A program made the position numbers and the translations under genes. 64,000 bases of DNA from a virus (taxonomy: Duplodnaviria > Heunggongvirae > Uroviricota > Caudoviricetes), in IMG/VR virus record IMGVR_UViG_2563366840_000011, positions 12,067-76,066 of that record; one strand, given 5' to 3'. The notes beneath the pieces are model-generated. The model searched no databases. It saw only the letters and a list, made by a program, of their open reading frames with translations, and was not told the DNA's origin. Position 1 is the stretch's first letter. Each line of letters opens with the position of its first letter. Below, piece after piece: positions 28,128 through 36,325 of the stretch.

Positions 28128-28631
28128 TTATTGATAGTGTTTTATGTTCAGATAATGCCCGATGACTTTGTCATGCAGCTCCACCGATTTTGAGAACGAC
28201 AGCGACTTCCGTCCCAGCCGTGCCAGGTGCTGCCTCAGATTCAGGTTATGCCGCTCAATTCGCTGCGTATATCGCTTGCTGATTACGTGCAGCCTTCCCT
28301 TCAGGCGGGATTCATACAGCGGCCAGCCATCCGTCATCCATATCACCACGTCAAAGGGTGACAGCAGGCTCATAAGACGCCCCAGCGTCGCCATAGTGCG
28401 TTCACCGAATATGTGCGCAACAACCGTCTTCCGGAGCCTGTCATACGCGTAAAACAGCCAGCGCTGGCGCGATTTAGCCCCGACATAGCCCCACTGTTCG
28501 TCCATTTCCGCGCAGACGATGACGTCACTGCCCGGCTGTATGCGCGAGGTTACCGACTGCGGCCTGAGTTTTTTAAATGGCGGAAAATCGTGTTGAGGCC
28601 AACGCCCATAATGCGGGCGGTTGCCCGGCAT
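28128..28631 (-). CDS. insB: IS1 transposase InsB
   Basis: 167-aa [67 protein letters not shown]... Confidence 0.95.
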
Positions 28632-28825
28632 CCAACGCCATTCATGGCCATATCAATGATTTTCTGGTGCGTACCGGGTTGAGAAGCGGTGTAAGTGAAC
28701 TGCAGTTGCCATGTTTTACGGCAGTGAAAGCAGAGATAGCGCTGATGTCCGGCGGTGCTTTTGCCGTTACGCACCACCCCGTCAGTAGCTGAACAGGAGG
28801 GACAGCTGATAGAAACAGAAGCCAC
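28550..28825 (-). CDS. insA: IS1 protein InsA
   Basis: 91-aa [54 protein letters not shown]...; A-run frameshift site at about 28559-28566. Confidence 0.95.
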
Positions 28826-28880
28826 TGGAGCACCTCAAAAACACCATCATACACTAAATCAGTAAGTTGGCAGCATCACC

Positions 28881-29221
28881 CCTTTTTCAGTGAAAATCTC
28901 GCCAAGCGGTGTCTGGCTGTTATTAATCGCCCAGTCAGCCCCGCTCTCTTTCGCTTTTTCCAGTCGTTCATCAATGCGATCGGCAACAATCACATTTTTA
29001 ACGTTATAGACGCCTTTTAATACCTGAACGATCGTCAGGCCGATTGGACCGGCACCATAAACCAGAACGGTATCATTTTCAGTCGGTTGACCATGTCCGG
29101 TTACGTTAGCCGCAATGGTAAAAGGTTCGATCATTACCGCATATTGATCGGCCACTGCTTCAGGAATTTTCCACGCATTTTTTGCCGGAACCACGGCATA
29201 TTCACTGAAACCACCGTCAGC
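28881..29221 (-). pseudogene. rspB: Internal fragment of rspB-like zinc-dependent alcohol dehydrogenase gene, cut by the Mu-like prophage upstream and IS1 downstream
   Basis: Minus-strand frame DGGFSEYAVVPAKNAWKIPEAVADQYAVMIEPFTIAANVTGHGQPTENDTVLVYGAGPIGL...EIFTEKG runs into the IS1 end; continues the reading frame of the fragment at 63661-64000. Confidence 0.8.
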
Positions 29222-29400
29222 TGTGGGGAGGTGATCGTTTCTGCACTGTGAAGAATCTAGGGAAAAATGCCGGGAAGGCCGATGAATAGAGAGATTGCGT
29301 GGATTCTGTGATTTTGCACTGCAAAAAATAAAATGAGAAAAAATAGCTATTTTTGCGTTTAATTCTGCACTCGAATGAAAGGCTTTAGATCCTTTTTAAA
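29222..29400 (+). repeat. Mu-like left end with repeated candidate transposase-binding motifs
   Basis: GTTTCTGCACTGTGAAG, TTTTGCACTGCAAAAAA and TTCTGCACTCGAATGAAAG within the first ~170 bp; the same TTTTGCACTG-type motif recurs inverted at the right end. Confidence 0.6.
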
Positions 29401-29484
29401 GACCGTTTAAGCATTTTTCGATGCCAAGCACTATACCGTATAGTAGGTTGGTATGTAAGAAGTTGGCTTCAAAATCCATTTCGC

Positions 29485-30054
29485 TTAACCGGCCTTCTTG
29501 TCGTGACTTGTTAGGCCCGCTTCGGCTGTCTGTTGATCAGCCTCAGATGACCCTTTTTTCAGTTGCTCATTCAGCCTAAGCAAACGCTCTTTGTCTTCTA
29601 AGGGGAGATTCATCAGACTCATATCAACATCCTTAACGCTAGCCACAAGACCTACCATGCTGCGAGCGCCTTCCTTAAAGCAGTACTCTAATATTTTTTT
29701 CTGATCATCTGGTTCTAGACTGTCGAAAATCATGTTCCACGCGCATTTAGCAGGGTCTGCATATCCTCTGTGCGCTTCATCAACAGCGATGATGCGATTC
29801 AAATTAGAATCAGCCTCATGCCCAAATGCCAGCCAGTCCAACGTGACATGCTCTTTCGCTGCGATGGCTTGCATGGCAATGAAGGATGGTTCTGTTCCCC
29901 TGCTAAGGTAGTTGTTCAATGTCGAGAATGATAACCCCCAATCTTTTGCCGCAGCCCTTACACTGCGAGTGCCTACGAGAGCTTTTAGTCTCTTGATAAA
30001 GTTTTCTTTTCTCTCTTCATCAAAAGCAAATTCGTTTGCTTTACGGTATCCCAT
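29485..30054 (-). CDS. Prophage repressor (Mu c analog, HTH)
   Basis: 189-aa ORF MGYRKANEFAFDEERKENFIKRLKALVGTRSVRAAAKDWGLSFSTLNNYLSRGTEPS... with HTH-like segment; divergent from ner-A-B. Confidence 0.7.
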   Translation of the reverse strand: MGYRKANEFAFDEERKENFIKRLKALVGTRSVRAAAKDWGLSFSTLNNYLSRGTEPSFIAMQAIAAKEHVTLDWLAFGHEADSNLNRIIAVDEAHRGYADPAKCAWNMIFDSLEPDDQKKILEYCFKEGARSMVGLVASVKDVDMSLMNLPLEDKERLLRLNEQLKKGSSEADQQTAEAGLTSHDKKAG

Positions 30055-30237
30055 TTTCTTTCCTGTTTAACATATTGATTATAAAAGAATTGATTTCAAT
30101 TAGATTCAATCAACCACAAAAAGACAAAAGAAAGAGGTCTTTTTTGCTTTACGTGGTGCAAATTTGGATCAATACTTATCCCAACGGATAACCCCTGCGG
30201 ATTATCCGCCCGGTTAACTTTTTAGGGTAATCGAAGT
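30055..30237. promoter_or_regulatory. Divergent promoter/operator region between repressor and ner
   Basis: AT-rich; repeated TTGATT/TGATTTCAAT/GATTCAATCA motifs and palindrome CGGATAACCCCTGCGGATTATCCG. Confidence 0.5.
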
Positions 30238-30465
30238 ATGGAAAGAAATGAAGTACAGCGTGACTGGCATCGCATTGATATTGTCGCCGAGCTGCACAAG
30301 CGTGGCGTCACTATGCGCGGCCTTTCCGCCAGCGCGGGACTAAAACCCGACACGCTGAAAAATGCGCTGGCACGCTCTTATCCAAAAGGAGAGCGCATTA
30401 TTGCAAATGCTCTCAATTTAGAACCCGCCAGTATCTGGCCAAGCCGTTACAACAAGGACCTGTGA
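30238..30465 (+). CDS. Ner-like DNA-binding protein
   Basis: 75-aa ORF MERNEVQRDWHRIDIVAELHKRGVTMRGLSASAGLKPDTLKNALARSYPKGERIIANALNLEPASIWPSRY; Mu Ner/Nlp-like pattern. Confidence 0.85.
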   Translation: MERNEVQRDWHRIDIVAELHKRGVTMRGLSASAGLKPDTLKNALARSYPKGERIIANALNLEPASIWPSRYNKDL

Positions 30466-30466
30466 C

Positions 30467-32524
30467 ATGTTCGTGACTGTTAACGAATTAGTTGGCGTCC
30501 CTGGATTGCCAACAACACAACAAGGACTGCGATACAGTCTTAAAAAAAGTGCAGGCAACTCCCCTGAACTGGTTCGCAAGCGTGCTGGCAGCAAAGCATT
30601 CGAGTACCACATCGACTGCCTTCCTGAACAGGCGCGTGAAATAGTCAAAGCCCGGCATTATCGGGAGGTGTTGAAACAGTCTGATTGCTCACCCGCTCCA
30701 GCGGCACCAAAGCGGGAAGTCACCACGACCCGTGATGAGCTGGCGTTATTACGGCAGTGCCCGGTATTGCTGGAGCGTGAAGTTTCCGACCTTACCGAAC
30801 GCCAGAAACAGATCGCCGATGCGCGTGCATTATTAGCCGCAGAGGTTGAGCGCCTTCGGGATATCGGTATGTCTCGCGCATCGGCGGTTGAGTTCATCGC
30901 CAAAGAGTCACGCAAGGGTTCACTCCCGGAGAACATCCAGGCTGCGGCTGATATTGCCAATGCCCGTAAAGGCTCCAGCCGCCGTGGCGTGGGGGAAAGA
31001 ACACTCCAGGAATGGCTGTCTGTTTACCTTTCAACCCGCCCTGGTATCGAACGCCTTGCTTTACTGGCCCCAGGCCATCTTAAAGCGCGTAAGCCTGAAC
31101 AGATTAAGTGGCTCCCTGATTTTCTTGCTCACTGGCGGAAACTCTCAGGCCCTTCCCTGGTTGATGCGTGGCGTTCATTCAAGACTGAATGGCAGGCTAT
31201 CTATGCGGGACAGCCAGCGATGCTCGCAGTCTGCCCGTCTTATGATGCCGTTCGCCGTGCGATGGAAAAGTTGCCCAAACGTGAACGCGCTCGCGGCCGT
31301 ATCAGCGGTTCAGCGGCTCTGGCCTTTGAGGTTTACCAGAAACGTGACTGGTCACAGATGCCTGTAAATGGTTGCTGGATTGCGGATGGTAAATCGCTGG
31401 ATATGAAAGTTGCTCATCCGGTCCATGGCCGCCCATTCACGCCCGAACTGACGCTGGTGATTGATGGACGAACCCGCTTCCTGGTGGGCTGGAGCCTGGC
31501 GCTCTCGGAGAACGTCATCGCCGTAGCGGATGCCTATCGCTACGCCATGAAATTCCACGGGAAACCTCTTTTTGTTTATTCGGATAACGGTGGCGGCGAA
31601 ACGAACAAAACGCTGGATGCTGATATCACCGGTATTTTCACCCGCATGGGGATTGATCACCCGACCAGTATTCCTGGCCGACCTCAGTCTCGCGGGATTA
31701 TCGAACGCCTGAACGCCGTAATACCGAGAGCGATCGCCAACAAATTTGATACTTACAACGGATTCGGGGCCGACCGTGAGCATGTCCGGATGACCGGTCG
31801 CGCCATCCAGTCAGCGATTAAGGCTCAGGAGAATGGCCGCGAGCTCACGAGCGTACAGCGTAATGCGCTGCGTAAACTGCCGTCATGGCAGATGCTGCTG
31901 GATACCATTGCCGAGGAAGTCGACAAATACAACAACCTGCATGAGCACAGCGAGTTACCGAAGCGTAATGGTGTTCATATGACGCCAGCACAGTACCGTC
32001 GCGAGGTCCTGGCCACTGAGGGTGACGAGATTGAATATCTGACGGATATCGAACTTCGTGAAGCCTTCATGCCGGAAATGTGCCGTACGGCCCAGAGAGG
32101 CTGGATTGACCTGATGAACAACCAGTATTTCAGCGCTGACCTGATACAGGTCGATGGTGAAGAGGTTCGTGTTGCCTATGACATTCACGACCCTGCCGCC
32201 GTCATCGTTCGCCGTATGGACGGTACTTATGTCTGCACCGCCATCTGGAACGGCAACAAGCGTGCCGCGCTGCCAACCAGCATGATGGATATCGCCGTTG
32301 AGAAACGCCGCCAACGTCGTCTGAAGCGCATTGACGAACAGCGAGAAGAGATTGAAGCAGAGGCGCGAGGACTGCTGCCAGAAAGCGATATGTACCCTGA
32401 TTTCGGCGCATTAATACCATCAGATGCCGAGCGTATTAATGATGACCGGGAACACGTGTTCCTGTTCGAGTCAGAGCGAGAAGAGTGGCTGAAAAGTCAG
32501 GGCAATAAAAAAGCGGCCTTCTGA
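30467..32524 (+). CDS. Mu-type DDE transposase (MuA-like)
   Basis: 685-aa ORF; DDE-core-like segments ...IADGKSLD..., ...VYSDNGGGETN..., ...GRPQSRGIIERLN...; directly follows ner. Confidence 0.9.
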   Translation: MFVTVNELVGVPGLPTTQQGLRYSLKKSAGNSPELVRKRAGSKAFEYHIDCLPEQAREIVKARHYREVLKQSDCSPAPAAPKREVTTTRDELALLRQCPVLLEREVSDLTERQKQIADARALLAAEVERLRDIGMSRASAVEFIAKESRKGSLPENIQAAADIANARKGSSRRGVGERTLQEWLSVYLSTRPGIERLALLAPGHLKARKPEQIKWLPDFLAHWRKLSGPSLVDAWRSFKTEWQAIYAGQPAMLAVCPSYDAVRRAMEKLPKRERARGRISGSAALAFEVYQKRDWSQMPVNGCWIADGKSLDMKVAHPVHGRPFTPELTLVIDGRTRFLVGWSLALSENVIAVADAYRYAMKFHGKPLFVYSDNGGGETNKTLDADITGIFTRMGIDHPTSIPGRPQSRGIIERLNAVIPRAIANKFDTYNGFGADREHVRMTGRAIQSAIKAQENGRELTSVQRNALRKLPSWQMLLDTIAEEVDKYNNLHEHSELPKRNGVHMTPAQYRREVLATEGDEIEYLTDIELREAFMPEMCRTAQRGWIDLMNNQYFSADLIQVDGEEVRVAYDIHDPAAVIVRRMDGTYVCTAIWNGNKRAALPTSMMDIAVEKRRQRRLKRIDEQREEIEAEARGLLPESDMYPDFGALIPSDAERINDDREHVFLFESEREEWLKSQGNKKAAF

Positions 32525-32569: not shown

Positions 32570-33463
32570 ATGTCAGCTAAAAATGAACTTGTCGAACTGA
32601 TGAAAGCAAAAGGTCTTAACCAGACGCAGGTCGCCCGCGCTATTGGTAAGAGCTCTGCCGTAATCAGCCAGTACCTGAATAATAAATACGACGGCGATAT
32701 TGCATCGCTGGAAAACGATATTCGTAGCTTTATCGATCGTCAGCATGAAAAAGAGCGCTCGGCACGTATCAGCGTCAAATTTGTTGATACCCCAACAACG
32801 CGCAAAGCCGTTGATGTTATACGCATGGCGCACGTCGAAGGTGATATCAACGTGCTTTACGGCGAAGCCGGTCTGGGCAAGACGATGATTTGCAAAGCCT
32901 ACGTCTCTAAATACCGGGATGCGTTGCTGATTGAGGCCGACCCTGGCTACACCGCACGCGTAATCCTGGAAGAACTCTGCAACCTGCTGGGGCTCAGTAC
33001 CCGCGGCAATATGCATGAACTTAGCGAAGCCTGCATCAACAAGCTGCGCGACTCCGGGCGCGTGCTGATTATTGATGAAGCTGAGAACCTCCCTCTGCGT
33101 GCGCTGGAATCTATCCGCCGCATTCATGACAAAACGGGGATCGGCATCGTCCTGGTTGGTATGCCTCGCCTGATTCTGAACCTCAAGGGCAAACGCGGTG
33201 AGCTCGTACAGCTCTATAGCCGTGTCGGTTTCGCCCTCAACCTCGGGCATAGCCTGCCGGGTGCTGATATTGACGTCATCGCCAGCAGCGTTCTCCCGGA
33301 TGGCCTGAATGAAGACCTGAGCAAAGCGCTGTTCAACGCATCAAAAGGTAATGCCCGCCGACTGTTCAAGCTACTGCGCGGTGCAGTTCGTACCAGTGCA
33401 ATGAATGATGTTCCGGTCAGCGGTCATATCGTCAATCAGATAGCCGAAATGCTGATCCATTAA
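32570..33463 (+). CDS. Transposition ATPase (MuB-like, AAA+)
   Basis: 297-aa ORF with N-terminal HTH-like region and Walker A GEAGLGKT, Walker B LIIDEAE. Confidence 0.88.
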   Translation: MSAKNELVELMKAKGLNQTQVARAIGKSSAVISQYLNNKYDGDIASLENDIRSFIDRQHEKERSARISVKFVDTPTTRKAVDVIRMAHVEGDINVLYGEAGLGKTMICKAYVSKYRDALLIEADPGYTARVILEELCNLLGLSTRGNMHELSEACINKLRDSGRVLIIDEAENLPLRALESIRRIHDKTGIGIVLVGMPRLILNLKGKRGELVQLYSRVGFALNLGHSLPGADIDVIASSVLPDGLNEDLSKALFNASKGNARRLFKLLRGAVRTSAMNDVPVSGHIVNQIAEMLIH

Positions 33464-35825: not shown

Positions 35826-36325
35826 GAGATATCACCGCACTGGCGCAACACCTAAGAGTGTATGCCGAAGAATTCAGTTATCCGGTTCTATCTCCTGATG
35901 ATTGCAAAACGCTGGTAGATGCGCTGGAAGCAGGACAACCACACCACAACGGCCTGATGCAGCTCTCTAATGAACTGGTGATGGCTAAGCAGAGAATCGC
36001 AGAACTGGAGTCCGGCACAGCCACCGCGTCGCAGAGCGATTACTTTGCCTCTCTGGTAGCAATGGCTCGTGTTTCAGCAGAAAAAGCGATGCGGAAGTTC
36101 CCTCAGCCGAACTACGTGCTTCTTAAGGTTGCGGAGGAAGCTGGCGAGGTCGTGCAGGCCGGGGTCCATTACGCAGAGAAACGGATGGAGTGGCAGCAGG
36201 TAGAGGGCGAGATTGTCCAGCTGTTGGCAATGCTGATTCGCCTGGTGACGGAGGGCGACCAGATTAATGGCATCACTCCTCCGGCCGATGGCATCCAGGT
36301 TATCGAAGGGGATAATTATGACTGA
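35822..36325 (+). CDS. Candidate MazG-like nucleotide pyrophosphohydrolase-domain protein
   Basis: 167-aa ORF; C-terminal half ...NYVLLKVAEEAGEVVQAGVHYAEKRMEWQQVEGEIVQLLAMLIRL shows an EExGE ... E-x-E pattern resembling MazG/HisE-type motifs (second motif divergent). Confidence 0.4.
   Translation: MRDITALAQHLRVYAEEFSYPVLSPDDCKTLVDALEAGQPHHNGLMQLSNELVMAKQRIAELESGTATASQSDYFASLVAMARVSAEKAMRKFPQPNYVLLKVAEEAGEVVQAGVHYAEKRMEWQQVEGEIVQLLAMLIRLVTEGDQINGITPPADGIQVIEGDNYD

Follow-up and report, generated by a model that had tools for sequence, protein, structure and literature searches.

A proposed two-module control region between a CI-type repressor gene and ner in a Mu-like prophage of Escherichia coli

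The interval 30055-30237 of the analysed DNA, a stretch of 64,000 nucleotides referred to here as the window, is probably the lysis-lysogeny control region of a Mu-like prophage, composed of two modules on which a Ner-like protein and a CI-type repressor would act as proposed below. The argument is built on the identities of the genes, the positions of the motifs, their conservation among relatives, the linkage of each half of the region to its flanking gene and the co-variation of the motifs with protein specificity. The region is real but expected, being a Mu-type repressor/Ner switch, a kind of control region that was previously known; novelty appears to be limited to the DNA words that the repressor and Ner seemingly read.

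The repressor-ner gap and its two parts

The interval is exactly the intergenic gap of 183 bp between the repressor start codon (CAT at 30052-30054 in the plus-strand reading) and the ATG of ner at 30238, and it is AT-rich, with 34% GC compared with 52% in the 64-kb window. The following genes surround it:

29485-30054, minus strand: repressor gene, 189 aa, with a CI-type helix-turn-helix (HTH; Pfam PF07022 Phage_CI_repr, E 1.9e-4)
30055-30068, minus strand: ribosome-binding region of the repressor gene (AAACAGGAAAGAAA on that strand), as read from the sequence
30238-30465, plus strand: ner-like gene, 75 aa (Pfam HTH_35, PF13693, E 6e-28)
30467-32524, downstream of ner: MuA-like transposase
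32570-33463, downstream of the MuA-like transposase: MuB-like ATPase

The succession of CI-type repressor, Ner, MuA-like transposase and MuB-like ATPase is the gene order of Mu, and the gap is directly adjoined by an HTH_35 ner gene, the neighbour looked for beside a Mu-type Ner operator. The Ner-like protein shares 55.6% identity with Mu Ner and 53.5% with D108 Ner, and it has PDB matches to 1neq (Mu Ner) and 7f9h (EnrR). The repressor matched the transcriptional repressor PHROG 3037 (E 9e-38), and sequence comparison found no similarity of it to Mu c, D108 c or the N-terminus of the prophage's own transposase. An earlier sequence-only reading had called the interval the operator region of a Mu-like prophage, and the identities and order of the genes support it: this is a divergent repressor/ner control region. 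Within the ribosome-binding region of the repressor gene, almost all of the aligned relatives keep TTTCTTT. A conserved inverted repeat between this region and an A-rich box described below was considered as an anti-Shine-Dalgarno pairing and dropped, because in the alignment, read by eye, its left arm varies and its right arm is constant, with no compensating changes.

E. coli is the host: the DNA on the left side of the prophage, as far as 29224, shows 99.7% identity to chromosomes of this species. The left end of the prophage lies at ~29225, where this homology stops, and a plasmid match starts at 29307. An IS1 element (insA/insB-like ORFs at 28128-28825) is located immediately left of the prophage end, and a truncated zinc-type alcohol dehydrogenase-like ORF (28859-29194) adjoins it. 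Three direct repeats of the type TTYTGCACT, at 29239, 29312 and 29363 on the plus strand, lie between the left end and the repressor gene and are candidate transposase end-binding sites; inverted copies were not found near the right edge of the window, so the right end of the prophage is probably beyond 64000. The prophage region is rare in E. coli, being present in 1 of 5426 complete genomes, as a plasmid remnant, and a DNA search of the phage collection with 29250-30500 gave no match. Going by the transposase, Klebsiella phage ST405-OXA48phi1.1 is the nearest deposited phage, with an amino-acid identity of 68.5%.

Two sets of repeats in the gap are considered first:

30185-30191 and 30202-30208: arms CGGATAA and TTATCCG, perfect 7-bp inverted arms with a 10-bp spacer (CCCCTGCGGA)
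30075-30113: TTGATT-type repeats c1 (30075-80, plus strand), c2 (30090-95, plus strand) and c3 (30108-13, minus strand, as AATCAA), a candidate operator cluster

The sequence-only reading had described the former as CGGATAA-N9-TTATCCG; the arms are indeed perfect, but the spacer counts 10 bp. It had also listed several TTGATT and GATTCAAT repeats, of which TTGATT is found three times over both strands and GATTCAAT only once, at 30103-30110. How much such motifs weigh was assessed with 2000 dinucleotide shuffles of the 183 bp. Perfect inverted repeats of at least 8 bp with a spacer of at most 20 bp arose in 11% of the shuffles, and a 7-bp inverted repeat is therefore unremarkable. Three copies of TTGATT were attained in 8 of the 2000 shuffles and three copies of GGATAA in none, but these counts are not decisive, because the choice of word is free and any hexamer occurs three times in 35% of shuffles. 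Taken alone, the motifs of the window are not clearly above chance. The commonness of 7-8 bp inverted repeats and of thrice-occurring hexamers in shuffled DNA is what would speak for regarding the motifs as chance features of AT-rich intergenic DNA; however, they keep their positions across ~30 loci, form modules linked to the flanking genes and co-vary with protein specificity, and we hold this explanation to be extremely unlikely.

These ~30 loci share the same layout, with gaps of 161-183 bp, and were gathered from searches with Ner and with the repressor, eight contig look-ups, an E. coli plasmid remnant, Mu and D108. In their alignments the repressor-proximal part of the gap is variable and the ner-proximal part is highly conserved. 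The identity of each DNA segment was compared with the identity of each protein across 16 loci, and the resulting correlations, which are raw values of rho that ignore shared ancestry, were as follows:

30167-30237, ner-proximal DNA: rho 0.78 with Ner, 0.08 with the repressor N-terminus
30064-30123, variable DNA: rho 0.16 with Ner, 0.36 with the repressor N-terminus
30136-30166, -35 and spacer of the early promoter Pe: rho 0.15 with Ner, 0.39 with the repressor N-terminus

Over the same 16 loci, Ner identity and repressor identity gave a rho of 0.00. Mosaic loci, which are independent of the rho statistics, display the same division: the window, L001 and L073 share an identical or near-identical ner half and have unrelated left halves belonging to three immunity types, the L001 repressor being a different one of 210 aa and that of L073 being 44% identical. 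The joint between the modules in these three loci is the early-promoter spacer. L001 is a related prophage remnant on the E. coli plasmid pMCR10_2641_2 (NZ_JALDNN010000003.1, 84407-85660); it holds only the repressor, the control region and ner, truncated by IS26 just past ner and by a partial transposase gene at the other side.

The early promoter and the GGATAA array

The following features were located in the right part of the gap:

30120-30135, plus strand: conserved A-rich box AAAGACAAAAGAAAGA, at about -63 to -48 of Pe
30148-30176, plus strand: predicted early promoter Pe (-35 TTTACG at 30148-53, 17-bp spacer, -10 AATACT at 30171-76), from a weight-matrix scan
30154-30171: quasi-palindrome TGGTGCAAATTTGGATCA in the Pe spacer, 82% self-complementary, including GATC at 30167-70
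30176-30217: candidate Ner operator with four GGATAA-type half-sites, TTATCC 30176-81, GGATAA 30186-91, TTATCC 30202-07 and GGTTAA 30212-17
30197-30209: perfect 6+1+6 palindrome GCGGAT-T-ATCCGC around the third half-site

Pe has the best plus-strand weight-matrix score in 13 of 16 loci and is among the top three in all 16. A simple promoter/terminator scan listed none inside the gap, Pe being absent from it because its score of 8/12 falls under the cut-off of that tool. In Mu, whose GenBank record annotates the early promoter at 991-1028, the -35 GCTTTACA, a 17-bp spacer and the -10 TATCTT align with Pe of the window, and GCTTTAC is common to both. A sub-group of viral contigs (L010, L014, L043 and L046) has an 11-bp deletion in the early-promoter region; the usual -35 is gone in them and a TTGAnn hexamer is now placed exactly 17 bp from the -10. 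Upstream of the promoter, AAAAGAAAG (30125-35) is invariant in the 12 loci that encode the same repressor HTH, and the AAAGAAA core of the A-rich box is invariant in all 16 loci of the wider set, whatever their immunity type; by its position, the box may be an UP element or the site of a conserved factor. The GATC (Dam site) at 30167-30170, immediately upstream of the Pe -10, recurs at the corresponding position in 16 of 17 related loci, which could reflect a promoter/operator constraint or a Dam-sensitive expression of the transposase. The quasi-palindrome that includes it is a candidate promoter-proximal repressor site.

The array of half-sites begins at the last base of the predicted -10 and forms a hyphenated dyad of 24+4+24 at 30171-30222. 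With at most one mismatch, TTATCC-N4-GGATAA occurs three times in the 64-kb window, and two of the matches are adjacent inside the gap (30176 and 30202). The third, TTATCGAAGGGGATAA at 36300-36315 with one mismatch, lies within overlapping early-region ORFs. A repeated symmetric motif is placed between the predicted early-promoter -10 and ner, in the position of the Ner repeats of Mu and D108: Mu has AGCTAGCTAAGT-N6-ACTTAGTTAAAT right after its -10, in a stretch that its GenBank record marks as the Ner binding region, and D108 has CCGTGAGCTAC-N8-GTAGCTCACGG likewise. The Ner sites of these two phages were taken from the GenBank annotation of Mu and the sequences themselves.

The motif changes with the specificity of Ner, three classes of recognition helix corresponding to three classes of motif. 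All Ner proteins with PDTLKNALxRSYPKGE are accompanied by GGATAA-type repeats, those with TTLANALERxWPKGE (Mu and L054) by CTAAGT-type repeats, and those with S[SA]STLKNALDKRYPKAE (D108 and L052) by GAGCTAC-N8-GTAGCT. We infer that the GGATAA array is bound by the Ner-like protein. The idea of the sequence-only reading that the CGGATAA palindrome is a candidate site for this protein gains from the linkage of the array to Ner, from its Mu-like position and from the co-variation with the helix, but the palindrome, CGGATAA-N10-TTATCCG at 30185-30208, comprises only the inner pair of the four half-sites.

Taken literally, that reading would have a single CGGATAA-N-TTATCCG palindrome bound by a symmetric Ner dimer, and every TTGATT and GATTCAAT would be a repressor operator. 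The arms are perfect, their centre-to-centre distance of 17 bp is near that of the inverted Ner repeats of Mu (18) and D108 (19), and in a comparison of 11 relatives 82% of cells preserve the palindromic symmetry. Against it, conservation is just as high for the half-sites at 30176-81 and 30212-17, and the same 11 relatives preserve the outer pairings, two copies of TTATCC-N4-GGATAA with 26 bp between them, in 89% of cells. Furthermore, the repeats of L024 and L026 are direct and not inverted: these loci and L051 carry three direct CGGATAAC-type repeats with a 13-bp period, and the array of the window is equally readable as direct 8-mers with that period, at 30185, 30198 and 30211. The single copy of GATTCAAT also tells against the literal version, as does the conservation of the first TTGATT described below, and we consider it unlikely. 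The palindrome GCGGAT-T-ATCCGC is present in the window, L001, L034, L036 and L044, and other relatives have CGGA-N4-TCCG.

Another reading of the dyad is that it forms a hairpin in the leader RNA of the early operon, acting on stability or on ner translation, and is not a protein site. The minimum-energy fold of 30183-30245 does pair CGGAUAA with UUAUCCG, but shuffled sequences match it (z = -0.40, with 66 of 200 shuffles as good), the stem is impossible in the direct-repeat relatives, and an Rfam search gave no significant match. Among the 11 relatives, no compensatory change was found in either the inner or the outer pairings, and pairs conserved in this manner argue for independently conserved protein contacts and against an RNA stem. 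We regard the hairpin as very improbable and retain the four half-sites as the candidate Ner operator.

The repressor-proximal repeats and the IHF consensus

In the left part of the gap, the repeats c2 and c3 together form TTGATT-N12-AATCAA. Twelve loci encode essentially the same repressor HTH (RSVRAAAKDWGLSFSTLNNY..RGTEPSF), and their 63-bp variable segment contains 2-5 copies of TGAT[TC], with a mean of 3.2, compared with 0-2 copies and a mean of 0.83 in 12 loci of other immunity (Mann-Whitney p 1.6e-5, uncorrected and ignoring shared ancestry). The usual layout of the same-HTH loci, with plus-strand copies at positions 22 and 37 and a minus-strand copy at 50-66, corresponds to c1, c2 and c3 of the window. 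The TGATT half-sites are thus candidates for the operator of this CI-type repressor.

Other immunity types have their own words, often repeated in the Pe spacer. The word is TTTCTCA in L001, which repeats it in that spacer; L034 and L036 have TTGAACCCA/TGGGTTCAA, with TGGGTTCAA as the Pe-spacer repeat in L034; and L044 has TCACATGTGA/TCACTTGTG, with TCACTTGTG in the Pe spacer. L001, L034, L044, L024 and L026 show clear pairs of motifs, with one member in the variable part and the other in the Pe spacer. The c2 region of L024 and L026 agrees with their Pe spacer/-10 region at 12 of 14 positions (reached in 0-2 of 300 shuffles); the orthologous match in the window is 10/14 and not significant, since 136 of 300 shuffles reach the same.

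The first TTGATT coincides with a different kind of site, and three candidate promoters for the repressor gene were read on the minus strand:

30068-30080, minus strand: exact match to the IHF consensus AATCAATATGTTA (WATCAANNNNTTR), holding the first TTGATT
30078-30083, minus strand: candidate proximal repressor -10 TATAAT, read from the sequence, with no recognisable -35; low confidence
30099-30069, minus strand: alternative repressor promoter, TTGAAA 30099-30094, 19 bp, TATGTT 30074-30069; top minus-strand score, 9.0
30201-30230, minus strand: Mu-like distal repressor promoter facing Pe, -35 TTACCC 30230-25, 18 bp, -10 GATAAT 30206-01; score 5.3, low confidence

At the position of TATAAT, the relatives have variants ending in AAT, and the distal -10 GATAAT is not kept in all of them (alignments read by eye in both cases). 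The distal facing position has the top minus-strand score in L001, L010 and L014.

On the minus strand, AATCAATATGTTA is made up of the first TTGATT and a conserved TAAC four bases away. Of 17 loci spanning many immunity types, 9 carry the exact consensus in this position and orientation and 14 carry it with no more than one mismatch; its specified positions are conserved and its NNNN positions are variable. The 64 kb contain just three exact matches in total. Mu carries TATCAACGCGTTA at a distance of 18 bp from the start of c. Among the 12 loci of other immunity, 8 retain the first TTGATT (30075-80), and as this copy is conserved across immunity types and is the core of an exact IHF consensus, it is not specific to the repressor. 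Binding of IHF at 30068-30080 is what we infer here, and the first TTGATT may be an IHF site and a repressor half-site too.

All TTGATT repeats might then be explained by IHF sites together with elements of the repressor-gene promoter, the repressor itself binding only in the Pe spacer. Besides the exact consensus kept across immunity types, 30087-30099 on the minus strand matches IHF at 12 of 13 positions (by eye), the repeats overlap candidate minus-strand -10 and -35 hexamers, and an IHF site in the same region of Mu is known to affect Pe (PMC3820752). However, the TGATT copies past the first are almost confined to loci with the HTH of this repressor, and a host factor cannot explain these extra copies, because they track that HTH. 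We find this account doubtful and prefer to see c2 and c3 as candidate repressor half-sites. The proposal of the sequence-only reading that the TTGATT repeats are repressor sites consequently seems to hold for c2 and c3, as TGATT is enriched in the same-HTH loci; the first copy, shared across immunity types as the core of the IHF consensus, would not be specific to the repressor.

The base at 30096 is T in the window and G in L070-L072, three independent metagenome contigs whose repressor is identical; for two of them this is the sole difference in the 183-bp gap. The position falls within the second TTGATT-type repeat, where ATTGCAAT, a perfect 8-bp palindrome, becomes ATTTCAAT in the window, and the T/G difference may be an operator polymorphism.

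Known switches and the proposed scheme

The early region of Mu consists of c, the operators O1-O3 with an IHF site, the promoters Pe and Pc, a Ner site, and ner-A-B. The prophage resembles it in gene order and divergent layout, in Ner, in the GCTTTAC and 17-bp spacer of Pe, in repeats that start right after the -10, in an exact IHF consensus near the repressor start and in the size of the gap (183 bp here, 169 bp in Mu). It differs in that the repressor has a CI-type HTH (PF07022) and Mu c a winged helix, in that the Ner word is GGATAA in four half-sites and not CTAAGT in two 12-mers, and in the core of the transposase, only ~23% identical to MuA. In D108, too, a GC-containing repeat with dyad symmetry is placed between the Pe -10 and ner; its word is GAGCTAC, in one long perfect inverted repeat (two 11-bp arms, 8 bp apart) as opposed to the four short half-sites here, and the D108 repressor is of the Mu c type. 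D108 Ner, itself monomeric, forms oligomers along a long operator, and it was reportedly studied bound to an operator of 61 bp. By analogy, the array of 42-52 bp in the window would fit a long operator like that of D108.

The lambda and 186 CI/Cro switches share with this region a maintenance repressor and a small early-lytic repressor that are divergent around a common control region, and an immunity module that is exchangeable between otherwise similar phages. In contrast to them, the early operon here encodes a transposase, Ner is an HTH_35 protein outside the Cro family, and the number and spacing of the operators, here predicted from sequence, are different. The best PDB sequence match to this Ner is EnrR of Edwardsiella (PDB 7f9h/7f9i, E 7e-23), of which two closely packed monomers bind the odd-length palindrome AATAAAT-N-ATTTATT (PMC9023278). 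The geometry of that palindrome is comparable to GCGGAT-T-ATCCGC at 30197-30209, but EnrR, which has an N-terminal extension, is a chromosomal protein that associates with the nucleoid and regulates AT-rich DNA, and the protein here is a phage Ner whose word contains GC.

In Mu and D108 the transposition enhancer (O1-O2, the internal activating sequence) coincides with the immunity operators because repressor and transposase share a DNA-binding domain. By BLASTP, Mu c is 41% identical to MuA (E 6e-15) and D108 c is 55% identical to D108 A (E 4e-17). The same comparison between repressor and transposase of the window gave no significant match, and hence no sign of the shared domain that goes with an operator-enhancer. 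Residues 1-70 of the transposase did not follow the repressor N-terminus either (rho 0.11, p 0.30), and L014, L017 and L021 have different repressors and near-identical transposase N-termini. A sharing of operator and enhancer in the style of Mu is not expected here, because the repressor is not homologous to the transposase N-terminus, which ignores immunity type. One could go further and suppose that in this enterobacterial Mu-like family the enhancer is uncoupled from the immunity operators, with the invariant boxes forming a scaffold for IHF and transposase and with the GATC possibly Dam-sensitive. The boxes that would persist through immunity swaps are the IHF consensus at 30068-80, AAAAGAAAG at 30125-35 and GATCAATACT at 30167-76, and Dam methylation affects transposase expression in IS10 and IS50. 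We put this forward as a quite unlikely, speculative extension.

For the switch itself, protein binding, transcription start sites and the direction of regulation are given as predicted. In the right module, ~30144-30237, Pe would read ner and then the transposase genes, and the four GGATAA-type half-sites would span from the Pe -10 through the predicted start site, such that the Ner-like protein bound to them would lower early transcription. Mu Ner represses the facing repressor promoter, and the Ner-like protein here may do so as well. The left module, ~30064-30143 and extending into the Pe spacer, would be specific to the immunity type, its TGATT-type half-sites being read by the CI-type repressor beside the IHF site upstream of the repressor gene. 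The repressor would shut Pe from the promoter-proximal site in the spacer (30154-30171) and the upstream cluster.

The understanding of Mu-like regulation is unchanged by this region. It offers a concrete and testable map of a switch of the Mu type for a lineage in which Ner is combined with a CI-type repressor, and this map places the candidate Ner word GGATAA, which is new, the candidate repressor half-site TGATT and the IHF site. The map would be of use for the annotation of such prophages and for the choice of orthogonal repressor/operator pairs, and it also defines, in the early-promoter spacer, the recombination joint for the exchange of immunity cassettes.
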